Source of the DNA: Anaeromyxobacteraceae bacterium
GTDB taxonomy: Bacteria > Myxococcota > Myxococcia > Myxococcales > Anaeromyxobacteraceae
Reading direction: 5' to 3'
Length of the DNA: 64,000 bases
NCBI GenBank assembly: GCA_047602405.1
Contig: JASGHJ010000001.1
Span: forward strand, 160,001-224,000
Shown here: piece after piece, positions 53,756 through 64,000 of the stretch
Layout: the number at the start of each line of letters is the position of its first letter
How positions within the stretch are numbered: position 1 is the stretch's first letter
Made by a program: the position numbers and the translations under genes
The notes under the pieces: model-generated
What the model was told of the DNA's origin: nothing
Databases searched by the model: none
What the model saw: only the letters and a program-made list of their open reading frames with translations

Positions 53756-54115
53756 CTACTTCGCGGTCGCCGGCGTGTTCGTCGCTGCCGCGGGCTGGGT
53801 CGTCGCTGCCGCGGGCGGGGTCGCCGGCGGAGCGTCGGGCTTCCCGTAGTACTTCACGAGGTAGTCGACGATCTTCGGCACGTCCTCGGGCTTGATCTTG
53901 GCGTCGAACATCTTGACCATCTTGCCGACCGAGCCCTCCCACGCCTTGCGATCCAGGAACGGCGAGTTCATCTGGATGTAGTCGAGGCTGTGGCACATCG
54001 AGCAGCTCGCCTTCACGAGCGCGGCGTCCGGGCCGTCCTTCAGCTTCACCGCCTTCTCGTCCGCGAGCGCGGCGGGCGCCGCGGCGAGGAGGGCCATCAC
54101 GATCAGGGTGCGCAT
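53756..54115 (-). CDS. sorB: Monoheme cytochrome c subunit of sulfite dehydrogenase (SorB-like)
   Basis: Signal peptide, CSMCHSLDYI, WEGSVGKMVK, IVDYLVKYYG; directly downstream of sorA. Confidence 0.8.
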   Translation of the reverse strand: MRTLIVMALLAAAPAALADEKAVKLKDGPDAALVKASCSMCHSLDYIQMNSPFLDRKAWEGSVGKMVKMFDAKIKPEDVPKIVDYLVKYYGKPDAPPATPPAAATTQPAAATNTPATAK

Positions 54116-54126
54116 GCGGTGCCTCC

Positions 54127-55365
54127 TCACCCGACGTCGAGGGTGACCTTCGAGACGACGTTGTTGTGGTAGCCGGCCGGGTTGAACACGAGCTCGAACG
54201 ACTGCGAGCCGCCGAGCCGGTTGGTCGCCTTCGCGAGCACGACCTGGGCGCCCTTCCCCTCCGCCTGGATCGCCATCGAGAACGACCGGAACGAGAACTT
54301 CCCGAGGTCCTGGCCGAGGTCCGCGGGACGCCAGCTCCGGCCGCCGTCCGCCGAGACCTCGACGGTGCGGATGCCGTAGCCGCCGTCCCAGGCGATGCCC
54401 TTCACCTCGACCTGGTCGCCGGCCTTCACCTTCTGGCCCTCGCGCAGGTTCGTGATGAGCGAGTTCGTCACCATCTCGGTGATGGGCATGTTCACGTCGC
54501 TCTCCTGCGACGAGAACCGGTCCACGAGCGGAAACTTGCCCTTCGGGATCCGGTAGGCCGGCGCCATCCAGAACGACTTGAACGGCTGCGTCACCGCCTG
54601 GATCGAGACCACGTGCTTCATCCAGTAGGTCGCCGTCCAGCCCGGCACCACGAGGCGCACCGGGTCGCCGTGGTAGTGCGGGATCGGCTCGCCGTTCATC
54701 TCCCAGGCGAGCAGGGTGTTCTCGTCGAGCGCCTTCCAGACCGGGATGCTCTTCTGGAAGTCCGGCGTGGTCGCGAGCACCGCGGTGTCGGCGCCGTTCG
54801 CGACGATCTCGACGGCCTCCTTCTTGACGCCCGCCTTCGCGAGCACGTCCCTGAGCCGCACGCCCTTCCAGCGCGCGTTGCCCATCGCGCCGTGGCCCCA
54901 CTGCACGCCGGCCACGTGGGGCTCGGAGAGGCCGCGGCGGTTGCCGGAGCAGAGGCACACCGCGACGGTCTCGACCTGCTCGAAGTCCTTCCTGAGCGCG
55001 GCGAGGTCGAAGGTGAGCGGCTTCTCGAGGCCGTCGCCGCCGAGCTCGAGCTTCCACCGGGCCGGATCGACCTTCGGGGTCACCGGCAGGTGGCAGCGGA
55101 CGAAGAACGCGTCGTTCGGCGTGATGGCGTCGTCGAAGTACTCGACCGGCGTCTCGTAGTTCAGCGGCCGGTAGGTCCGCTTGATGAGCGGGCGCTTCCC
55201 GGGGAGGGACTCGAGCACCGACTCCTCGAGCGTGCCGGCGGGGAGGCCGGCCGGGCCGAGCGAGGGCTTCTCGCCGGCGTGGGCCCAGCGGGGGAGGAGG
55301 GCGCCGGCGCCGGCCACGGCGGCGCCGCTCGCAACCTTGCGAAGGAATTGACGTCTGGAGGTCAT
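54127..55365 (-). CDS. sorA: Sulfite-oxidase-family molybdoenzyme (SorA-like), Tat-exported
   Basis: SRRQFL Tat motif, FFVRCHL, CSGNRRG Mo-Cys, GVQWGHGAMGNARW, GIAWDGG, NPAGYHNN. Confidence 0.88.
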   Translation of the reverse strand: MTSRRQFLRKVASGAAVAGAGALLPRWAHAGEKPSLGPAGLPAGTLEESVLESLPGKRPLIKRTYRPLNYETPVEYFDDAITPNDAFFVRCHLPVTPKVDPARWKLELGGDGLEKPLTFDLAALRKDFEQVETVAVCLCSGNRRGLSEPHVAGVQWGHGAMGNARWKGVRLRDVLAKAGVKKEAVEIVANGADTAVLATTPDFQKSIPVWKALDENTLLAWEMNGEPIPHYHGDPVRLVVPGWTATYWMKHVVSIQAVTQPFKSFWMAPAYRIPKGKFPLVDRFSSQESDVNMPITEMVTNSLITNLREGQKVKAGDQVEVKGIAWDGGYGIRTVEVSADGGRSWRPADLGQDLGKFSFRSFSMAIQAEGKGAQVVLAKATNRLGGSQSFELVFNPAGYHNNVVSKVTLDVG

Positions 55366-55537: not shown

Positions 55538-55750
55538 TCACGCGCCGCGCTGCGGCGCGTCCTTTCCGGGGTCGATGGTCCGCCACTGGTAGGTGGGCGC
55601 CTCGCCGTGGTGACCGATGGTGATCATCCGGATCATCTTCAGGTTGATCCACGCGAACCGCACGAGCTGCCACGGCAGGAACGTCCGCATGAGGACGGTC
55701 CAGCGCGTCGGCATGGGCGCGTGGAAGGTCTGCTCGCCGGGTCTGGGCAT
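55538..55750 (-). CDS. Small (70 aa) protein directly downstream of sqr
   Basis: GGGAG RBS 11 bp after the sqr stop; MPRPGEQTFHAPMPTRWTVLMRTFLPWQLVRFAWINLKMIRMI. Confidence 0.6.
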   Translation of the reverse strand: MPRPGEQTFHAPMPTRWTVLMRTFLPWQLVRFAWINLKMIRMITIGHHGEAPTYQWRTIDPGKDAPQRGA

Positions 55751-55761
55751 CGTCGACTCCC

Positions 55762-57216
55762 CTACTCCGGGATCAGCCACCAGCCCGCGCGGGCCTTGGC
55801 CTTCCAGAGGAACAGGTGGTGGAGGATCTTCTTGATCCAGTGGCCGGCGAGGCCGATCTCGCCGAACGTGAAGCGGAAGTCCCGGCCGTAGTCCGGGTAC
55901 TTGTCGTAGTCCGGCACGATCGGGAACATGGTCATCGAGGCCGCGGAGCCGCCGAGCCAGCTTGCGCCGGCCGAGGCCACGCAGGACGCGCCCATCTCGG
56001 CCATCGACGCGGTGCGCGTCGGCCGGGGCGTGCCCATCACGATCATGCCGGTGATGGACTCGGCGACCGCGCGGGCCATGACGGCCGACGGCATGCCGGT
56101 GCGCGGCGGGGCGGGGGCGATCAGCGTCCCCTTCGCCGACTTCCGCGGGCGGGAGATCGCGTGCGGCGGCGCGAAGGCGATGCCGATCGCGAAGACGTTG
56201 GGGTACCTGGGGGTCTGGTAGGTCTTCGGCCAGTCGGCCGCCTTCCACTGCTCGAACGGCTTCGCGGTGTAGTCGGCGTCGACCCGCATGAACCCGCTCG
56301 GCGCGAAGACCTCGGAGGTGATCTCGGCCCCGTCCTTCGCGAAGGCCTTGATGGGCTGGCCGGCGAACGGGGGCAGCAGCATCGCGAAGTCGAACGGGAG
56401 GTCGTGCTCGACCCCGTCGAGCGTCTCGTAGTGCACCACGTCCGGCTCGACCCGGTGCACGTGGGCGCCGGTGATCCACTCGATGCCGCGCTCGGCGTAC
56501 AGCGACTCGGCGAAGGTCTTCGAGTGCACGCGGTAGCCGCCGCGCTCGAGGTGCACGCCGCCCACGCCGAAATCGCCGAGGTCGGCCTCGTTCGTGAGGA
56601 AGACGATGCGGGCGCGGTCGCGCACGCCCGCCTGCCGGAGCGTGAACTCGACGTTGAAGACGTACTCGAACGCCGCGCCCTCGCAGGTGCACAGGCCGTG
56701 GCCGACGCCGACCACCAGCGTCAGCCGCTCGCCCTGGCGCATCCGGGCGATGGCCTGCGCGAGCGCCTTCGCCGCGTGAGCGGCGTGGTCGTTCGTGCAG
56801 ACCGAGACGGTGTGGGCCTCGGGGCCGAGGCCGGGCGTCGCCGCGAAGTTGAGGCGGGGACCGGTCGCGTTGACGAGGTAGTCGTAGGGCACGCGGGAGC
56901 GCTCGCCCGCCGCGGCGCCGGTGGACTCCACCACGACGTGCGGCCCGGGCTCGGCGGCGCCGCCCTCGGCCCACAGCTCGACCGCCTTCGCCTGGACGAA
57001 CTCGATGCCCTCCCGCCGGTAGACCGGGGCGAGCTCGAAGACGACGTCCTCCGGCTTCATCATCCCGACGCCCACCCAGATGTTGGACGGGATCCAGTTG
57101 CAGGTCGGCTTCGGGGAGACCACGGTGACCGTGTGCTCGCGCGGGAGCTCCTTCCGGAGGAGCAGCGCCGCCGTGTGCCCCGCGATGCCGGCGCCGAGGA
57201 CCACCACCTTCGCCAT
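55762..57216 (-). CDS. sqr: Sulfide:quinone oxidoreductase
   Basis: VVVLGAGIAG, WIPSNIWVG, SVCT, GHGLCTCEGAAFE, APPRTGMPS, ASCVASAG, GLAGHWIK. Confidence 0.87.
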   Translation of the reverse strand: MAKVVVLGAGIAGHTAALLLRKELPREHTVTVVSPKPTCNWIPSNIWVGVGMMKPEDVVFELAPVYRREGIEFVQAKAVELWAEGGAAEPGPHVVVESTGAAAGERSRVPYDYLVNATGPRLNFAATPGLGPEAHTVSVCTNDHAAHAAKALAQAIARMRQGERLTLVVGVGHGLCTCEGAAFEYVFNVEFTLRQAGVRDRARIVFLTNEADLGDFGVGGVHLERGGYRVHSKTFAESLYAERGIEWITGAHVHRVEPDVVHYETLDGVEHDLPFDFAMLLPPFAGQPIKAFAKDGAEITSEVFAPSGFMRVDADYTAKPFEQWKAADWPKTYQTPRYPNVFAIGIAFAPPHAISRPRKSAKGTLIAPAPPRTGMPSAVMARAVAESITGMIVMGTPRPTRTASMAEMGASCVASAGASWLGGSAASMTMFPIVPDYDKYPDYGRDFRFTFGEIGLAGHWIKKILHHLFLWKAKARAGWWLIPE

Positions 57217-57310
57217 GGAGACCTCCCCTGGACCACGAGCGGGCCCGAGCCACGTGTGAGGTGCGGAGGGTGGCGGGCGGTTCGCGCTCGCCCCGCCCGG
57301 GACCGAGGTG

Positions 57311-57457
57311 ATGGACGGCGCCGCCTACGTGCACCGCGACGACACCGTCGAGCGGATGATCCCGCTGCCGGTGGTCGGGCACTGGATGGAGCGCGGCTGG
57401 GGCCGCTACTTCACGCTCTCGAAGAAGCGGCTCGTGCCGCGGCTGCCGGGGACGTAG
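57311..57457 (+). pseudogene. 48-codon ORF resembling the C-terminus of an SQR-like flavoprotein (remnant)
   Basis: MDGAAYVHRDDTVERMIPLPVVGHWMERGWGRYFTLSKKRLVPRLPGT; GHW motif and amphipathic helix; coding-like GC3. Confidence 0.45.
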
Positions 57458-57574: not shown

Positions 57575-57625
57575 TTGACGCCGGTCAACCGCCCTGGCAG
57601 AACGTTCAACGATTCAATTGAACGT
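57575..57625 (+). promoter_or_regulatory. Promoter plus ArsR-type operator palindrome
   Basis: TTGACG-N17-CAGAAC (57575-57603), then ACGTTCAA-N8-TTGAACGT (57602-57625) overlapping the start codon. Confidence 0.6.
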
Positions 57626-58398
57626 GATCTCCTGACAAGAACGCCCTCGCGCGCGCCCACTACGCGGAGCTCGCCCGCATCGGGAAGGTCCTCGGCAGCC
57701 CCGTCCGGCTGCTCCTGCTGGATCTCCTGCGCCAGGGGCCGCGCTCGGTCGAGACGCTCGCCGAGGCCGCGGGCCTGCCGGTCGCGAACGCCTCGCAGCA
57801 CCTCCAGCACATGCGCCGCGCCCGCGTGATCGCGGCCGAGCAGCGCGGCCGGTTCACCGTGTACCGCCTCGCGGCCGAGAACGTCTCGGCGGTCTTCGCC
57901 GCGCTGCGCCTGCTCGCGGAGGACCTCCTCCCCGAGATGGACCGGCTCCGCGGCGAGCTCTCCGTGCTCGGCCCGGAGGAGCGCGAGGAGCTCCTCGAGG
58001 CGATCCGTCGCGACGCCGTGACGCTCGTCGACGTCCGCCCGGTCGAGGAGTTCCGCGCCGGGCACCTCCCCGGCGCCCACTCGATGCCGCTCGCCGAGCT
58101 GCGCGAGCGCCTCGCCGAGCTGCCGCGCGAGCGCGAGATCGTCGCGTACTGCCGCGGCCCTTACTGCACGCTCGCGGGCACCGCCGTCCGGATCCTCGAG
58201 CAGGCCGGCTTCAGGGCCCGCCACCTCGACCTCGGCGTACCCGACCTCAGGGCCCGCCGCTTCCGCATCGCCTCCGGCGACGCCGCGCAACCGCGCCGCG
58301 CCGCCCCGCCCACCCGCCGCGCCGTTCGCACCTCGAAGCCCAGCACCTCGAAGCTCAGCACCTCGAGGCCCCGCACCCGCACCCGGAGCTCCCGATGA
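57624..58398 (+). CDS. ArsR/SmtB regulator fused to a rhodanese domain; one extra base right after the GTG start
   Basis: ARIGKVLGSPVRLLLLDLLRQGPRSVETLA..NASQHL (open from 57628); VDVRPVEEFRAGHLPGA, YCRGPYC. Confidence 0.85.
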
Positions 58399-59333
58399 GA
58401 CACCTCGTTGCCGTCGCCGCCCTCGCGTTCGCCACCCCCGCCCTCTCCGACGACGTCTTCGTGTCCGCGGACGAGGCGAAGGCCCTCGCCGGGAAGCCCG
58501 ACGTCCGGTTCGTCTACGCCGACGCCGTGAAGAAGTTCGAGGCCGGGCACGTCCCCGGCTCGGTCGTCGCCTTCGCGCACGACCTCCACTTCCTCGACGA
58601 CGTGAAGGCCTGCAAGGGCCTGCCGATGTGCGAGCCCGCCGCCGCGAAGCTCATCGGCGGCACCCTCGGCATCGACGGGAAGACCCAGGTCGTCGTGTAC
58701 GACGACGGCCCGGGCGCGAACGCGTCCGGCACCTGGTTCTTCCTCGAGCTCTACGGCGTGCCGAACGTGAAGATCCTCGACGGCGGCCTCGCCGCCTGGA
58801 AGGCGAAGGGCGGCGCGGTCGAGGCCGGCGCCCCGGCGAAGGTCGCCGCGAAGGCGTTCACGCCCGCCGTGCAGTGGAACATGATCGCGACGGTCGACGA
58901 GGTGAAGAAGGCGACCGCCGACGGCGCCCACTACGTCATCCTCGACTCCCGCCACAACCTCGACGAGTACACCGGCAAGCAGCTCCTCGGCGCGCTCTCC
59001 GCGCCCGGCAAGGAGCAGACCGTGAAGCGCGGCGGCGCGATCCCCGGCGCGATCTTCTCGCCCTGGTCGAAGTACGCCGGCAACAAGGACGGCGCGGCCG
59101 ACAAGCCGACGCTGAAGGACCCCGCCGAGCTCGCGAAGCAGCTCGAGAAGCTCAAGAAGAACGGCTACGACCCGTCGAAGACCGTCATCACCTACTGCCA
59201 CGTCGGCCTGGGCCGCGGCTCGTTCCAGTACCTCGCGCTGCGCGCCGCCGGCCACAAGAACACGAAGGTCTACGTCGGCTCCTGGGACGAGTGGGGCAAC
59301 GACGCCTCGCTCCCGCTCGCCGCGCAGCCGTAG
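58395..59333 (+). CDS. Periplasmic two-domain rhodanese/sulfurtransferase
   Basis: Signal peptide, GHVPGS, KILDGGLAAWK, TYCHVGLGRG active loop, VYVGSWDEW. Confidence 0.88.
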   Translation: MRHLVAVAALAFATPALSDDVFVSADEAKALAGKPDVRFVYADAVKKFEAGHVPGSVVAFAHDLHFLDDVKACKGLPMCEPAAAKLIGGTLGIDGKTQVVVYDDGPGANASGTWFFLELYGVPNVKILDGGLAAWKAKGGAVEAGAPAKVAAKAFTPAVQWNMIATVDEVKKATADGAHYVILDSRHNLDEYTGKQLLGALSAPGKEQTVKRGGAIPGAIFSPWSKYAGNKDGAADKPTLKDPAELAKQLEKLKKNGYDPSKTVITYCHVGLGRGSFQYLALRAAGHKNTKVYVGSWDEWGNDASLPLAAQP

Positions 59334-59342
59334 GAGGTCGTC

Positions 59343-60473
59343 ATGGTCGGCTCCTTCCTCGCGGGCGCCCTCACCGGCGCGGCGTTCGGGTGGGTCCTCT
59401 ACAAGGTGGGCGCCACGCGCTACTCGCGCGTGATGGGCATGCTCACGCTCAAGGACACGAAGGTGATGAAGTTCGCCTTCACCACCATCGGCGTCGCCTC
59501 GCTCGCCTATGGCCTCGCGGCCGCGGCGGGCGTGGCGGAGGCCTGGGGGCTCGTCCCCCGGGTGATGCCGTTCCTCGGCTACGGCCACCTCCTCGGCGGC
59601 GCGCTCTTCGGCCTCGGCATGGGCGTCTCCGGCCTCTGCCCCGGCACCTGCGTCGCGAAGCTCGGCGGGCGCGGCGGCGGGAAGAAGTACGCCACGCCGG
59701 CCGCGGTCCTGGGGCTCGTCGCCGGCGTGCTCGTCTACCAGCTCGTGAAGGATCGGCTGATGTCCGCCGGGGTCATCGCCGAGAACCAGCTGCCGCTCAC
59801 GCTGCACGGCGTGCTCGGCCTGCCCTACGCGGCGGTCGCGCTCGTCCTCGCCGCGGTCATGATCGCCGTCGCGATCGCCGTCGACCGGCTGACGCCCGAG
59901 GCGGTGTACGCGCCGGCCCGCGAGAAGAGGACGCTCGTCGACTGGCTGCGCGGCGAGTGGAGCTGGACCGCGGGCGGCACCGCCGCGGGCCTCCTCGTCG
60001 TGGCCTCGACCGCCCAGGGCGGCTACCTGGGGTTCTCGGGCGCGATCCTCGCCGCGGTCGGGAGCGGCACGCACCTCCTCGGCCTCGACCTCCCCATCGT
60101 CCCCCGCGTCGACGCCGACATCGTCTGGCGGGCCGCGCTCATCCTCGGCGTGTTCCCGGGCGCCTGGCTCGCCCACGCGGTCGCGATCCCGTCGAAGGCG
60201 GCGGTCGAGGCCCCCGCCGTGAAGGTCCTCGACTGGCGGGCGATCGGCACGAGCTTCGGCGCGGCGGCCACGATGTGCCTCGGCGCGCTCGTCGGCGGCG
60301 GCTGCACCACCGGCGCGTTCCTCTCCGCGTGGCCGACCCTCTCGGTCGGCAGCTTCGCCATGGCGGGCACGTTCTTCGCCGTCTCGATGGCGACCTCGAG
60401 CGCCCGGGCGTTCCTCCTCCACACCTACGACATCGGCGCGGCGCAGGCGTTCGGCGATCGCGCCTACGACTAG
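59343..60473 (+). CDS. YeeE/YedE family membrane protein (full-length, two halves)
   Basis: VMKFAF, SGLCPGT, GGGCTTG. Confidence 0.85.
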   Translation: MVGSFLAGALTGAAFGWVLYKVGATRYSRVMGMLTLKDTKVMKFAFTTIGVASLAYGLAAAAGVAEAWGLVPRVMPFLGYGHLLGGALFGLGMGVSGLCPGTCVAKLGGRGGGKKYATPAAVLGLVAGVLVYQLVKDRLMSAGVIAENQLPLTLHGVLGLPYAAVALVLAAVMIAVAIAVDRLTPEAVYAPAREKRTLVDWLRGEWSWTAGGTAAGLLVVASTAQGGYLGFSGAILAAVGSGTHLLGLDLPIVPRVDADIVWRAALILGVFPGAWLAHAVAIPSKAAVEAPAVKVLDWRAIGTSFGAAATMCLGALVGGGCTTGAFLSAWPTLSVGSFAMAGTFFAVSMATSSARAFLLHTYDIGAAQAFGDRAYD

Positions 60474-60482
60474 GAGCCGGCC

Positions 60483-60617
60483 ATGAAGATGCAGATCAGG
60501 ATGCTCCTCGCGGCGGCCGTGCTGGTGCTCGCCGCGGGCTATCTGGGCCTCAGGAGCGGCAACGCGGCGCTGGAGCGGAAGGTCGCCGCCACCGCGAGGG
60601 GTGAGGTGACGCCGTGA
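60483..60617 (+). CDS. Small single-TM protein (44 aa)
   Basis: AGGAG RBS; MKMQIRMLLAAAVLVLAAGYLGLRSGNAALERKVAATARGEVTP; GTGA overlap with next gene. Confidence 0.55.
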   Translation: MKMQIRMLLAAAVLVLAAGYLGLRSGNAALERKVAATARGEVTP

Positions 60618-61076
60618 AGCTCGAACCGCTCGTCTGGGTGGGGGCGCTCGCGCTCCTCTCCGGCATGGTCGTGAGGGAGGGCCAGCGCCGCACCGCGCTC
60701 GAGGCCCAGGTGCCGGTCGAGGCGAAGGACCTCTACCGCACGATGGCGAGGTCGAAGGCGGCGCTCCAGAATCGTCGACGTCCGCCCCGACCTCTCCGCC
60801 GGCTACGAGGACGCCCGGGTGCCGGGCGCGCTGCCGATGCCCGGCTGCGACCTCGCCGCCGCGCCCGAGAAGGCGCGCGCCCGCATCGTCCCGTCGGTGC
60901 CCACCGTGATCGTCACGGCCACCGGCAGCGCGGCGGAGGCCGCGAGGTGCGCGGGCTTCTTCACGTCGGCGCGGTTGCTCGCCGGCGGCCAGGAGGCCTG
61001 GACCGACGCGAACCTGCCCGAGGACTCGGGCGAGTACTCCCCGCCGTCCGCGAAGGCGGGCGGGGGCTGCCTCTAG
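60614..61076 (+). CDS. Membrane-anchored rhodanese-like protein ending GGGCL; +1 frameshift at ~60770
   Basis: N-terminal TM; removing one A gives LQIVDVRPD..GYEDARVPGA..LAGGQEAW..AKAGGGCL. Confidence 0.72.
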
Positions 61077-61142
61077 GACGTTCGTCGCTCGCAGCAGGGC
61101 AGCGCTGGCAGCAGCGCTTCGACACCAGGGAGAGGGTTGGCC

Positions 61143-64000
61143 ATGTCCGTCAGCCGAAGGGACGTGCTGAAGGGGATCGCGGCGCTGCCGGTGGCCGGAG
61201 CCGCCGGCGAGGTCCTCGCCGAGGCAGCGCCTCGACAGCCGCAGCTGCCCGAGCCGGTCCGGGTGGAAGGCCCGGGGCCCGGCCCGACCGCGAAGGCCAC
61301 CGAGGACCTGTACCGCGCCGAGTTCGCCGGTACCTACGGCGACGGCGAGCAGCACGGGTACGCCTTCCACTGCGTGAACTGCCAGGGCAACTGCGCCTGG
61401 GAGGTCTGGACCGACGCGTCGGGCAAGGTGACGCGCGAGAACCAGTCGGCCTCCTACCCGCAGCTCGCGCCCGACCTGCCGGACGCGAACCCGCGCGGCT
61501 GCAACAAGGGCGTGCAGCACTCGCAGATCATGTACGAGAAGGACCGGCTCCTCTACCCGATGCGGCGCGCGGGCAAGCGCGGCGAGGGCAAGTGGACCCG
61601 GATCTCCTGGGACGAGGCGGTCACCGAGGTCGCCACCCACCTCTACGAGACCATGCTCTCGAAGGGGCCGGGCGGGAACTACGTCCACATGGGCTCGGGC
61701 ATGCTCTCCGAGGCGCGCGCCGCCTCCGTGAAGCGGCTCGGCTCGCTCCTCGGCGCGGTCCGCCCGTACATCGCGAGCTACGTCGGCGACAACTTCCCCG
61801 GCCCGGGCCTCGTCTACGGCGAGGGCAACCTCGGCGTCACCTACGACTTCTTCTACAAGACCGAGGTGGCGGTGTTCTGGGGCTGCAACCCCAACACCTC
61901 TCGCATCCCGGACGCCCACTACCTGTGGGAGGGGAAGTACAACGGCGCGAAGGTCATCGTCATCACGCCCGAGTTCAACTCGACCGCGGTGCACGCCGAC
62001 CTGTGGGTGCCGGTGAAGCCGGGCTACGACGGCCACCTGGCGCTCTCGATCATGAACCGGATCGTGGCGCGGAAGCTCTACGACCCGGCGTTCCTGAAGA
62101 CCTTCACGGATCTCCCGTTCCTGGTCCGCGCCGACACGAAGGAGCTCGTCCGGCTCCACGACGTCGACCTCACGGACAGGCGCTTCGACGCCGGCTCGGC
62201 GAAGCGGTTCGCCGCCGACGAGGCGAGGCACCACGAGGTCTTCCTCGCCTGGGACCTGAAGCAGAACCGGGCGACCGCGCTGCCAGGCTGCGAGGGCTCG
62301 ACGGTCGACACGCTCCGGCTCGAGGACATCGACTGGAAGCTCGACCCGGCGCTCGCGGGCAGCTTCAAGCTGAAGCTCAAGGAGCACGGCGGCGCCCCGA
62401 AGGAGGTCACGGTCGTCCCGGCCATGGCGCTCCTCGAGCAGGAGCTCCGGAAGTTCGCGCCGGAGGCGACCCGGAAGCTCACCGGCGTGCACCCGTCGAT
62501 CGTCGAGACCCTCGCGACCGACCTCATGAAGTCGAAGACCGCGGTCCTCACCCTCGGCTTCGCCATCGGCAAGCACTTCAACGGCCTCCTCTCCCAGCGC
62601 GCCATCGCCTCCCTCGGCGCGCTCATGGGCAAGCTCGGGCCCCGCGGCGGGTTCAACACCGAGAACGAGTGGTCGATCACCGGCCTCGGCGGGCTCTCCG
62701 GCTTCGACGGCCGCTACAACCACCGCTTCGCCTCGGGCTTCGTCTCCGAGTTCATGATGGGCGACGGCTTCGCGTCACCGGAGGCCGCCTTCCAGGACGA
62801 GGACTTCAGGCGCGCCACCGGCAAGGGGGAGAAGGAGTACGTCGCCGAGGTCGCCGCCACCATCGCGAAGAGCGAGGGCGACGCCGGCTACAGGCAGGGC
62901 AAGCCCTGGTGGAAGGAGACCGACACCTTCCTCCTCTTCGCCGACGCCCGCTTCCGCCGGAACAAGGGGCGCTACCGCGACGCGTTCCTGGAGAAGGCGA
63001 AGTTCATCGCGTACGGCGACTTCCGGATGAGCGACTTCGCGAGCTACGCGGACGTGCTCCTCCCCTGCTCCAGCCACTACGAGGTCTGGGACCTCCGCAC
63101 GAACCCCGGCTACCACCGCTACGCGAACGTCGCCGTCCCGCCCGCGAACCTCAAGAAGCTCGGCGAGGCGAAGTCGGAGTGGGAGATCTCGACGCTCATC
63201 GCCGAGAAGCTCCAGGCGATCGCGACCGCGCGGTACGCGGCGACGAAGGACGAGAGGTTCATCAAGATCCCCGACCGCACGCACACCCAGGGCGGCGTCC
63301 GCGACCTCGACCGCGTGGTCGAGGAGTTCACCCTCGGCGGGAAGCTCCGGAGCGACCGCGACGCGGTCGAGTTCGCGCTCGAGCACGTCGACCAGTTCAA
63401 GCCGAACGACCCGAAGACGATGGTGGCCCGCGGCGGGTACCTGCAGCTCAACGAGAAGGCGGGCAAGTCCTCGCCGCTCTACCCGGACCGGCCCTACTCG
63501 ACCTTCGAGAACAACCTGTACCTCACGCAGAGGTTCGAGACCGCGAGCGGCCGCCTCACCTTCTACGTCGACCACCCGCTCTGGATCGCCCAGGGCGCGA
63601 ACGTGCCGACCGCGAAGGAGCCGCTCGCCTCGCGGAAGTTCCCGTTCCTGCTCATGACGCCGCACGCGCGCTGGTCGATCCACTCGACCTACAAGACCTC
63701 GCCGACGCTGCTCCGCCTGCAGCGCGGCCGGCCGGCGGTCATGCTGAACCCGGCCATCGCCGAGAAGCGGGGCATCCACGACGGCGAGCTCGTGCGGGTC
63801 TTCAACGACCTCGGCGAGGCCACCATGGTCGCGAAGGTCGCCGCGAGCTGCCCGCGGGACGCGCTCGTCCTCGAGCACGGGTGGGAGCCGTTCTGCTACC
63901 CGGGCAAGAAGGGCCACAACGCGCTCGTCGGCTCGATGCTCAACCAGCTCGAGGTCTCCGACGGCTGGGGCCACCTCAGGTTCGGCACCGCCTGGGACGG
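61143..64000 (+). CDS. Tat-exported type II DMSO-reductase-family molybdoenzyme catalytic subunit (3' end beyond window; absent from ORF track)
   Basis: SRRDVLK Tat motif; FHCVNCQGNC...NPRGCNKG (His/Cys FS0); SYVGDNFPG (Asp ligand position); WGCNPNTSRIPDAH; TPHARWSIHSTY. Confidence 0.9.
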   Translation, partial: MSVSRRDVLKGIAALPVAGAAGEVLAEAAPRQPQLPEPVRVEGPGPGPTAKATEDLYRAEFAGTYGDGEQHGYAFHCVNCQGNCAWEVWTDASGKVTRENQSASYPQLAPDLPDANPRGCNKGVQHSQIMYEKDRLLYPMRRAGKRGEGKWTRISWDEAVTEVATHLYETMLSKGPGGNYVHMGSGMLSEARAASVKRLGSLLGAVRPYIASYVGDNFPGPGLVYGEGNLGVTYDFFYKTEVAVFWGCNPNTSRIPDAHYLWEGKYNGAKVIVITPEFNSTAVHADLWVPVKPGYDGHLALSIMNRIVARKLYDPAFLKTFTDLPFLVRADTKELVRLHDVDLTDRRFDAGSAKRFAADEARHHEVFLAWDLKQNRATALPGCEGSTVDTLRLEDIDWKLDPALAGSFKLKLKEHGGAPKEVTVVPAMALLEQELRKFAPEATRKLTGVHPSIVETLATDLMKSKTAVLTLGFAIGKHFNGLLSQRAIASLGALMGKLGPRGGFNTENEWSITGLGGLSGFDGRYNHRFASGFVSEFMMGDGFASPEAAFQDEDFRRATGKGEKEYVAEVAATIAKSEGDAGYRQGKPWWKETDTFLLFADARFRRNKGRYRDAFLEKAKFIAYGDFRMSDFASYADVLLPCSSHYEVWDLRTNPGYHRYANVAVPPANLKKLGEAKSEWEISTLIAEKLQAIATARYAATKDERFIKIPDRTHTQGGVRDLDRVVEEFTLGGKLRSDRDAVEFALEHVDQFKPNDPKTMVARGGYLQLNEKAGKSSPLYPDRPYSTFENNLYLTQRFETASGRLTFYVDHPLWIAQGANVPTAKEPLASRKFPFLLMTPHARWSIHSTYKTSPTLLRLQRGRPAVMLNPAIAEKRGIHDGELVRVFNDLGEATMVAKVAASCPRDALVLEHGWEPFCYPGKKGHNALVGSMLNQLEVSDGWGHLRFGTAWD

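Follow-up and report, generated by a model that had tools for sequence, protein, structure and literature searches.

A conserved, sulfurtransferase-linked type II molybdoenzyme of Myxococcota as a candidate oxidase of carrier-bound sulfur

In the Sox pathway, the C-terminal Cys arm of SoxY carries sulfur, which the sulfane dehydrogenase SoxCD oxidizes. Among type II molybdoenzymes, the Ser and Clr enzymes have a haem b γ subunit and use cytochrome c, yet act as reductases. To our knowledge, no characterized type II molybdoenzyme acts on a protein-bound substrate. Among the characterized type II enzymes listed in the table of PMC10100899, none has a protein-bound substrate, and DdhA is entered there as oxidizing DMS. 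A six-gene 'rhodanese-narGH' operon of Ca. Thiovulum stygium has been annotated as a nitrate reductase, and in cave Thiovulum, which lacks sox and dsr genes, this operon, whose layout matches the one described below, is expressed at the level of SQR (PMC9938260). A literature search, with most subscription journals outside it, found no characterization of the enzyme clade described here or of its Cys-tailed partner.

The window analysed comprises 64,000 nucleotides of an Anaeromyxobacteraceae genome (GCA_047602405.1, contig JASGHJ010000001.1, positions 160,001–224,000); coordinates are those of the window unless given as contig positions. Positions 57575–64000 hold six co-oriented, tightly joined forward-strand genes, all of them confirmed, and the single unit with overlapping junctions proposed in a preliminary description is borne out by ATGA and GTGA overlaps. 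The lead gene does encode an ArsR/SmtB HTH fused to a rhodanese domain (matches to HTH_5/HTH_20 and Rhodanese; YCRG loop; 57618–58398), as had been proposed, but it starts at about 57618–57624 rather than at 57575. It is followed by an exported tandem-domain sulfurtransferase of 312 amino acids (58395–59333; ATGA overlap with the preceding gene), a YeeE/YedE sulfur-transport membrane protein (59343–60473; PF04143; CPGTC and GGGCTTG motifs), a 44-amino-acid hydrophobic single-helix membrane peptide (60483–60617), a membrane-anchored rhodanese-fold protein (60614–61076; GTGA overlap with the preceding gene), and the 973-amino-acid Tat-exported catalytic (α) subunit of a type II Mo-bisPGD enzyme (61143–64064). 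The α gene runs off the window, as had been noted, and ends 64 bases beyond it (contig 224064).

The α gene had been taken for the end of the operon; instead, ten further co-oriented forward-strand genes extend to about 72500 in window numbering. The β (Fe-S) and γ subunits that had been predicted beyond the window lie directly downstream, at contig positions 224067–225134 and 225131–226192, respectively, the latter being an EbdC-type haem b domain fused to a class I cytochrome c. Next are a 142-amino-acid exported OB-fold-like protein with a Cys141 tail, here proposed to be a sulfur carrier (contig 226197–226625), Mrp/ApbC (contig 226625–227494), a monohaem cytochrome c (contig 227491–227865), and SCO with coxII/I/III/IV-like genes (contig 227885–232500), the cox names being read from motifs in the translations and not from a family scan. 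Upstream, on the reverse strand, lie a divergent SQR-like flavoprotein gene (484 amino acids; 55762–57216) and, within 53756–55365, a divergent SorA-like sulfite dehydrogenase gene (54127–55365) with a small c-type cytochrome (CSMCH); the SorA-like protein scores 425 bits against NF052245, below the cut-off of 600.

The α subunit is a type II (Asp-ligand) Tat molybdoenzyme, in agreement with the preliminary description, and has a twin-Arg motif (SRRDVLK), an FS0 motif (H76-x3-C80-x3-C84...C120) in which all four residues are invariant, and G215-D216. Asp216 aligns with PcrA Asp170, the Mo ligand position of PcrA/NarG, and is invariant in 97/97 sequences. TIGR03479 is by far the best family, and the score of 728.7 bits, below the curated cut-off of 984.75, marks a divergent member; scores against TIGR01580 (NarG; 203 bits, cut-off 1084) and the EbdA model (305, cut-off 2000) fall much lower. 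Among solved structures its best matches are PcrA, EbdA, and NarG, and the structure model matches PcrA with a TM score of 0.81. The aromatic gate of PcrA (F164-Y165-W461) reads I210-A211-W510 in α; the position of Tyr165 is occupied by Ala or Ser in all 97 clade sequences, and Arg207 is invariant and clade-specific.

Homologues of α form a clade of their own (support 100/100), which is the reciprocal sister of a DdhA clade (support 100/99) marked by the cluster named R. sulfidophilum DMS dehydrogenase; Clr is the next clade outward. Identity to α is 37.6% for DdhA, 34% for ClrA, and 30% for pNarG. Grouping of α with Nar or with Clr is rejected by AU tests (p 1.9e-40 and 0.0023, respectively), and quick trees agree with the careful tree. 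Nesting inside a characterized clade, the outcome that would have spoken against a distinct enzyme, is not seen for NarG, pNarG, ClrA, or DdhA; PcrA, EbdA, and NxrA, which like SerA stand outside the tree, were compared by score and fold alone, and yield 343, 283, and 96 bits, respectively, against 662–1385 bits within the clade, the programs being different.

The sulfurtransferases are tightly linked to this enzyme. A rhodanese gene lies upstream in 43 of the 44 metagenome clade loci with sufficient upstream DNA, for which taxonomy is inferred only, and in 21/21 Myxococcota loci, against 0/6 DdhA-group loci. Of the conserved neighbours suggested in the preliminary description, rhodanese thus holds, but YeeE is not universal and is absent from low-GC loci. 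In the tandem protein, whose hydrophobic N-terminus suggests a signal peptide, the catalytic residue is Cys268 (YCHVGLGRGS), and Cys73 and Cys79 form a conserved pair. The 44-residue peptide is called in 14/21 Myxococcota loci, and in each of them its gene separates that of YeeE from that of the anchored rhodanese. The latter is rhodanese-like and membrane-anchored, as had been described, but lacks the catalytic-loop Cys and has instead a C-terminus reading GGGCL, the GGCL tail being invariant (19/19).

Both electron-transfer subunits are recognizable. The β subunit scores above the cut-off of TIGR03478, and γ scores above that of PF09459 and below that of TIGR03477. The c-haem motif of γ is found in 20/20 and 50/51 loci of the clade and in 0/9 DdhA-group loci. 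The β and γ genes overlap directly with no δ chaperone gene between them; a check for a TorD-type chaperone gave a divided result, as the Myxococcota loci are without the usual δ chaperone and the low-GC loci have a TorD-like gene. Among nearby redox genes, those for cytochrome c, oxidase, and SorA-like proteins are the most frequent. Quinol dehydrogenase genes are not a recurring part of the core set, and oxidase genes follow downstream in 6/21 loci, all close kin.

The 142-residue protein ends in FKGCL, and its Cys141 is invariant. It occurs in 39/39 enzyme-positive Myxococcota genomes and in 1/362 others, where it is a fragment on a 4.9-kb contig; these counts, like the others given here, are not independent, because the genomes are related. 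The tail is present in 30/30 clade loci with both flanks, and its Lys, Cys, and Leu are invariant in 52/52 Cys-type carriers. No Pfam or NCBIfam family, including SoxY, matches the protein; a Foldseek search with its model gave no match at E <0.001, and the top-ranking rows of an Atlas search were all unnamed clusters. The best structural matches are OB-type barrels, which are weak (Z 6.7, rmsd 3.0, 77 residues aligned), and the C-terminal end is modelled as flexible, with low confidence. In complex prediction with α, the pair reached an ipSAE of 0.82 (the best of three controls, 0.00), a mark reached by 116/157 solved pairs and 2/215 mismatched pairs; runs shared at least 74% of contacts, and partner pLDDT was 84. 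The predicted interface on α includes residues 511 and 513, beside Trp510 (PcrA gate Trp461), as well as Arg392 and Tyr780, which show 97% conservation within the clade and are missing from 6/6 DdhA-group rows; most carrier-side interface residues are poorly conserved (<50%). The carrier is predicted to dock near the substrate tunnel of α, with its residues 137–142, including Cys141, placed without confidence.

In one sub-lineage, represented by metagenome contigs, TGA occupies the positions of the carrier tail Cys, the anchored-rhodanese tail Cys, and one YeeE Cys. The first Cys of the YeeE CPGTC motif is TGA in seven relatives, and the anchored-rhodanese tail reads G-TGA-L-stop in five. All 22 distinct TGA-for-Cys sites are followed by a SECIS-like hairpin (at least 6 bp, 14–23 nt downstream), compared with 17/93 Cys-coded sites. 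Because these TGA codons align to Cys and precede such hairpins, they probably encode selenocysteine. A selenoprotein review (PMC13188914) lists a YeeE selenoprotein whose motif, GUxSG, differs from the one here.

The promoter/operator region (57575–57624, forward strand) begins with a conserved TTGACG −35-like hexamer at 57575, the position previously given as the ArsR gene start. A palindrome, TTCAA-N8-TTGAA (57605–57622), overlaps the ArsR start; its exact form occurs once in the 6.16-Mb genome, and TTCAA-N8-TTGA is found in 10/11 ArsR-led loci and in 0/10 loci without ArsR. ArsR-rhodanese is the lead gene in 11/21 Myxococcota loci, and the conserved operator-like palindrome supports autoregulation of the operon by this protein, a putative persulfide sensor. 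A consensus promoter/terminator scan found nothing above chance, and a search of sequencing runs listed no RNA run for this genome (all shares <0.2), and contigs from the runs came from relatives rather than from this strain. Compared with an intact relative at 94% DNA identity, in which the ArsR-rhodanese frame is unbroken (259 amino acids), this assembly has one extra base in the ArsR gene (57633) and one in the anchored rhodanese gene (60771), each breaking the frame. Both are probably assembly errors, and local pseudogenization is judged less likely, because indels also break 5/38 flanking genes; a codon-based frameshift count (5–7 versus 3.3 per 100 kb) is too noisy to use.

A SorA-like gene is present in 18/39 enzyme-positive genomes, compared with 19/362 others, lies within about 10 kb of the operon in 13 of those 18, and was not found in the remaining 21. 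SoxY occurs in 2/39 enzyme-positive genomes and was not found in this Anaeromyxobacteraceae genome. With the SQR of this locus as the one query, 6/39 positive genomes gave a match.

Of the substrates proposed in the preliminary description, a sulfur or selenium oxyanion or carrier-bound sulfur, the last is favoured and reduction of a selenium (or chlorine) oxyanion is disfavoured. We consider it somewhat more probable than otherwise that the enzyme works in the periplasm, independently of Sox, to oxidize sulfane sulfur bound to the carrier and passes electrons to cytochrome c. From the observed gene set, clade, motifs, co-occurrence, and Cys/TGA exchange, together with the complex model, we infer the following steps. 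Polysulfide, S0, or thiosulfate would supply a sulfane atom, which Cys268 of the exported rhodanese would load onto carrier Cys141; the carrier would dock at the substrate tunnel so that its tail reaches Mo, and Mo(VI)=O would give oxygen to the outer sulfur, in the direction of the sister enzyme DdhA. Sulfite may then be released and oxidized by the neighbouring SorA-like enzyme, the release step having no assigned catalyst because the operon contains no SoxB-like releasing enzyme. Electrons would pass from FS0 through the β clusters, haem b, and haem c to cytochrome c, with the oxidase encoded downstream as the probable final sink in this organism. Transport of sulfane sulfur through the inner membrane may fall to YeeE together with the peptide and the anchored protein with the Cys tail, and ArsR-rhodanese would repress the operon until sulfane sulfur is present.

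The carrier, rhodanese, and selenocysteine evidence would fit either direction of catalysis, and redox wiring alone cannot fix it, because Ser and Clr enzymes with the same wiring are reductases. The same chemistry run backward, as reduction of an oxidized carrier adduct or of thiosulfate/tetrathionate in respiration or disproportionation, gains from a Ttr-like reductase module adjoining 4/21 loci and from the reductase Clr being the next clade out. We nevertheless regard it as unlikely: the nearest characterized relative, DdhA, is an oxidase, the core set has no recurring quinol dehydrogenase gene, and the class I c-haem fused to γ and the cytochrome c, oxidase, and SorA-like neighbours point the other way. 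The DdhA relationship, with HCxNCxGNC and an NKxRRNK-like segment common to both enzymes, could also indicate a dehydrogenase of a small organosulfur compound (DMS, methanethiol, or disulfides), with the Cys-tailed protein as an accessory subunit or product handler. This is improbable given an identity of only 37.6%, the consistently different residues 207–218 beside the Asp ligand (Arg207, Phe218, small residue at 211), and DdhA-group loci that have a δ chaperone and no rhodanese.

Equally improbable is a reductase of free nitrate, chlorate, or selenate, as assumed where the matching operon is named narGH (PMC9938260); type II membership, the Asp ligand, and the solved relatives PcrA, EbdA, and NarG agree with it, but the AU tests reject the Nar and Clr groupings, the aromatic gate is opened, this genome already has a separate NarG with its own chaperone, and it would not account for why a sulfurtransferase and a partner with a Cys or Sec tail are so strictly linked to the enzyme. 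Slightly less probable still, in our estimate, is that the Cys-tailed protein and rhodanese serve maturation or repair, for example by supplying sulfur to the metal site, with an unrelated substrate. The missing δ chaperone of the Myxococcota loci, the predicted binding of the partner to α, and Mrp in the operon suit such a role, whereas Tat enzymes mature in the cytoplasm and both carrier and rhodanese have export-type N-termini; moreover, low-GC loci have the TorD-like gene in addition to the carrier.

The gene set is conserved and encodes an unstudied secreted molybdenum enzyme. If carrier-bound sulfur is indeed oxidized, bacteria would have a way of oxidizing inorganic sulfur that has not been described and that is at present mistaken for nitrate reduction in genome surveys. 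It would also give a testable answer to how sulfur bacteria that lack genes for Sox, reverse Dsr, or sulfite dehydrogenase deal with stored sulfur, and would assign an unexpected sulfur metabolism to roughly one in ten of the searched Myxococcota genomes (39/401). More tentatively, and at rather less than an even chance, the system may be a convergent, Sox-independent machine in which a DdhA-derived bisPGD enzyme acts as SoxCD, an OB-fold Cys/Sec-tailed protein as SoxYZ, and a rhodanese as loader; it would close the gap between stored sulfur and sulfite in oxidizers that, like Thiovulum, have neither sox nor dsr genes, imply that some relatives of Anaeromyxobacter oxidize sulfur, and include two new selenoprotein families.

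The Thiovulum operon matches the low-GC branch in gene order and sizes (rhodanese, 961-amino-acid α, β, EbdC/cytochrome c γ, and an unannotated small gene), a layout that suggests membership in the same system. The regulated genes listed in the part of a Sulfurovum indicum S0 transcriptome report consulted (PMC10045233) include no ethylbenzene-dehydrogenase-type γ gene, which is uninformative either way. ClrABDC/SerABDC, PcrAB, EbdABC, NarG, and pNarG share the type II fold and subunit plan, and their operons, as examined, contain δ chaperones and no sulfurtransferases. Closest is DdhABC of Rhodovulum sulfidophilum, which likewise has a Tat-exported α with an Asp ligand and His/Cys FS0 motif, an Fe-S β, and a haem b γ, and which, according to PMC10100899, transfers oxygen onto sulfur in the periplasm, the chemistry proposed here. 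Unlike DdhABC, the present system has a c-haem added to γ, no δ gene in the Myxococcota operon, a rhodanese and a Cys-tailed partner as fixed neighbours, and different residues near the active site. By analogy, SoxCD/SoxYZ may be its functional counterpart, as a periplasmic Mo enzyme that oxidizes sulfur attached to a small carrier through a C-terminal Cys arm. SoxC, however, belongs to the sulfite-oxidase family and the enzyme here is bisPGD, the carrier has no SoxY family match and is modelled as an OB-like barrel, and a rhodanese stands in place of SoxAX in an operon without SoxB.

The gene for alpha, the catalytic subunit of a Tat-exported type II molybdoenzyme, lies at 61143–64064, and its 973-residue product has a twin-arginine leader. 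The six genes of the preliminary description were all found, co-oriented, and its FS0 motif and Asp ligand are borne out by His76/Cys80/Cys84/Cys120 and by Asp216, which aligns to PcrA Asp170. The operon does not end in the molybdoenzyme as had been stated: in the source genome G000, where the window is G000:C1:160001–224000 (coordinates above 64000 continue the window numbering), the same strand runs on past 64000 with no large gaps. It encodes beta (64067–65134, +; TIGR03478 above cut-off), gamma (65131–66192, +; an EbdC-type haem b domain plus a class I cytochrome c), a 142-residue exported protein with a Cys tail and a proposed carrier role (66197–66625, +; no family match), and then, up to 72500 (+), Mrp/ApbC, a monohaem cytochrome c, SCO and four cox genes. 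Beta and gamma had been sought beyond 64000 together with a TorD-type (delta) chaperone gene; the latter is absent from the operon, and the only PF02613 match in G000 adjoins its separate narG. Upstream and divergent are genes for SQR-like and SorA-like proteins, the latter accompanied by a small cytochrome; a 70-aa ORF after the SQR-like gene (55538–55750, −) is kept in the close relative L002 and has no Pfam match. After the cox genes, two adjoining genes (G000:C1:232518–234517) look, by their motifs, like WYL-domain (PafB/PafC-type) regulators.

L002 (Anaeromyxobacter sp.) is the closest relative fetched and is 94% identical across 16.7 kb. Relative to it, G000 carries one additional base in each of five genes: ArsR (57633), the anchored rhodanese (60771) and three cox genes (68966, 70582, 71530). 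Assembly error is the likelier cause, because in the comparison with L002 frame-breaking indels also occur in 5/38 flanking genes (two are close to the end of a gene and may not be real). Across the G000 assembly, genes are disrupted by scattered indels of one base. G000 also lacks ~1.07 kb that in L002 contains most of a second SQR-like gene, through either a real deletion or an assembly gap; just the last 49 codons are left (57304–57457) of a gene that encodes 387 aa in L002.

Comparison with NarG, ClrA and DdhA (dimethylsulfide dehydrogenase alpha), as earlier suggested, placed alpha in its own clade outside all three. In a careful phylogeny built from 30 selected proteins over 911 columns (PcrA, EbdA, NxrA and SerA left out), alpha falls within a 14-row clade (support 100/100). 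The sister of this clade (100/99) is a 6-row clade, the DdhA group, containing P0389, a protein whose 90% cluster carries the name Rhodovulum sulfidophilum dimethylsulfide dehydrogenase alpha. ClrA lies outside both clades. AU tests reject placing the alpha clade with ClrA (p 0.0023) and with NarG/pNarG (p 1.9e-40). Alpha is 37.6% identical to DdhA, 34% to ClrA and 30% to pNarG. DdhA oxidizes DMS to DMSO (PMC10100899), and therefore the nearest characterized relative of alpha adds oxygen to sulfur. The system is a type II family member outside Ddh, Clr, Nar and Sox, and literature searches found no characterization of this clade or system.

The alpha gene occurs in 39/401 Myxococcota genomes searched. 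Among 21 Myxococcota loci (20 positives picked for long contigs, plus L001 and L002, minus one duplicate, L045), the tandem rhodanese and the 142-residue protein (one by motif alone) are present in all, YeeE in 20, the anchored rhodanese in 19 (as called), Mrp in 17, the peptide in 14 (as called), ArsR-rhodanese in 11, coxII in six and a Ttr-like module in four. A metagenome set comprised 80 loci kept from 282; 79 have an alpha ORF, of which 70 were assigned to the alpha clade and nine to the DdhA group; a tree decided this for 30 loci, score and layout for the remainder. A lack of rhodanese neighbours in homologs, which would have spoken against the preliminary description, was not seen: rhodanese is directly upstream of alpha in 43/44 clade loci whose upstream DNA spans 1.5 kb or more, versus 0/6 DdhA-group loci. 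The expected YeeE neighbours hold for nearly all the Myxococcota loci and not for low-GC loci, which we infer to be Campylobacterota from an Atlas structural row and the Thiovulum paper. The gamma c-haem motif is present in 50/51 clade loci versus 0/9 DdhA-group loci (metagenome), and the carrier tail motif in 30/30 clade loci with both flanks; the sole DdhA-group locus with both flanks is without it. L033 (G229:C18) shows that the membrane module is separable: its reduced operon keeps ArsR, rhodanese, alpha, beta, gamma, carrier, Mrp and cox and lacks YeeE, the peptide and the anchored rhodanese.

Several loci carry further genes. Fe-S and NrfD genes directly follow the operon in 4/21 loci (L037, L040, L043, L052), and any of these that extends far enough also includes a large Ttr-like molybdoenzyme gene; small thioredoxins follow the carrier in four Myxococcota loci. 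A TorD-like chaperone gene follows the carrier in low-GC loci (L114:15627–16199, L127:12967–13536) and is absent from Myxococcota loci. In a sub-lineage with probable selenocysteine sites, a TlpA/ResA-type thioredoxin is just 5′ of alpha (L070:9356–9997, L057, L061, L062, L074, L081), and some loci have a rubrerythrin-like gene after gamma.

A palindrome, TTCAA-N8-TTGA, lies across the start of ArsR in 10/11 ArsR-led loci versus 0/10 others, which supports autorepression of the operon by ArsR-rhodanese.

The carrier accompanies alpha in all 39 alpha-positive genomes; of the 362 others, just one has it, and there it is a fragment in a contig of 4.9 kb. The predicted model of the carrier is a beta barrel that matches OB folds weakly and has an unstructured end. 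The carrier C-terminus is K-G/A-C-L in 52/52 Cys-type copies, despite a mean identity of 36%; the anchored rhodanese has a catalytic loop without Cys and ends in GGCL (19/19). In the sub-lineage with probable selenocysteine sites, TGA replaces a Cys codon in the carrier (KG-TGA-L-stop, 10 distinct sites), anchored rhodanese (G-TGA-L-stop, 5 sites) and YeeE (G[FL]-TGA-PGTC, 7 sites). A hairpin whose stem has 6 bp or more and whose loop lies 14–23 nt downstream follows 22/22 TGA sites versus 17/93 Cys-coded sites; this is the bacterial SECIS layout. The KG-U-L-stop carriers, G-U-L-stop anchored rhodaneses and YeeE G[FL]-U-PGTC proteins (L056–L121, metagenome; for example L062:7927–8292, L070:8916–9365 and L100:6537–6908), each with a SECIS-like hairpin, are probably new selenoprotein sites. 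Cys/TGA exchange serves as a selenoprotein criterion in PMC13188914, and here would single out the tail and YeeE Cys residues as having a chemical, not a structural, role.

The predicted complex of alpha 68–957 and carrier 35–142 has an ipSAE of 0.82 (best of three controls, 0.00); the ipSAE mark is reached by 116/157 solved complexes and 2/215 mismatched pairs, counts that are rough here, as custom alignments were used. At least 74% of contacts recur between runs, the partner has a pLDDT of 84, and no solved complex of this kind was found. The predicted interface contacts alpha 511 and 513, beside Trp510, which aligns to the PcrA gate residue Trp461, and includes Arg392 and Tyr780, two residues with 97% conservation across the clade that none of six DdhA-group rows has. 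The PcrA gate Tyr165 position is Ala/Ser in 97/97 clade sequences and Arg207 is invariant and clade-specific, features that would suit a bulky, anionic substrate.

The most likely reading, held with modest confidence and with all chemical steps inferred, is that alpha oxidizes a rhodanese-loaded carrier and passes electrons to cytochrome c and an oxidase. Rhodanese would put sulfane sulfur onto carrier Cys141, the carrier would dock at the alpha substrate tunnel, Mo would pass oxygen to the bound sulfur, sulfite would depart to SorAB, and electrons would flow through Fe-S clusters and haems b and c to cytochrome c and the oxidase. SorA-like genes occur in 18/39 alpha-positive versus 19/362 other genomes, and 13/18 lie on the operon's contig, within ~10 kb of it and variously arranged; this co-occurrence and proximity point to sulfite as the product. 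The window's SQR is in only 6/39 alpha-positive genomes (one query). However, carrier residues 135–136 are placed in the predicted complex and 137–142 are not, so that the tail is not placed in the active site; no release enzyme is evident; and oxidase linkage is confined to close kin.

Ser and Clr run similar wiring in reverse, and reduction of carrier-bound or free sulfur oxyanions is the foremost alternative, though an unlikely one. Reduction of a free oxyanion is a poorer prospect, and organosulfur oxidation is equally improbable. A maturation role is slightly less probable still.

The proposed oxidation of the carrier by alpha can be set beside known systems. In cave Thiovulum, six genes form an operon that matches the alpha operon in gene order and size: rhodaneses, 'narG' and 'narH', together with a cytochrome gene and one without annotation. 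The paper reports that sox, dsr, apr and sulfite dehydrogenase were not found, and gives expression values at two sites of 1907 and 1525 for alpha, 1088 and 1227 for type IV SQR, and 2.9 and 15.4 for one napA row (PMC9938260). SoxY is present in 2/39 alpha-positive genomes. If carrier oxidation holds, alpha and the carrier would work like SoxCD and SoxYZ.
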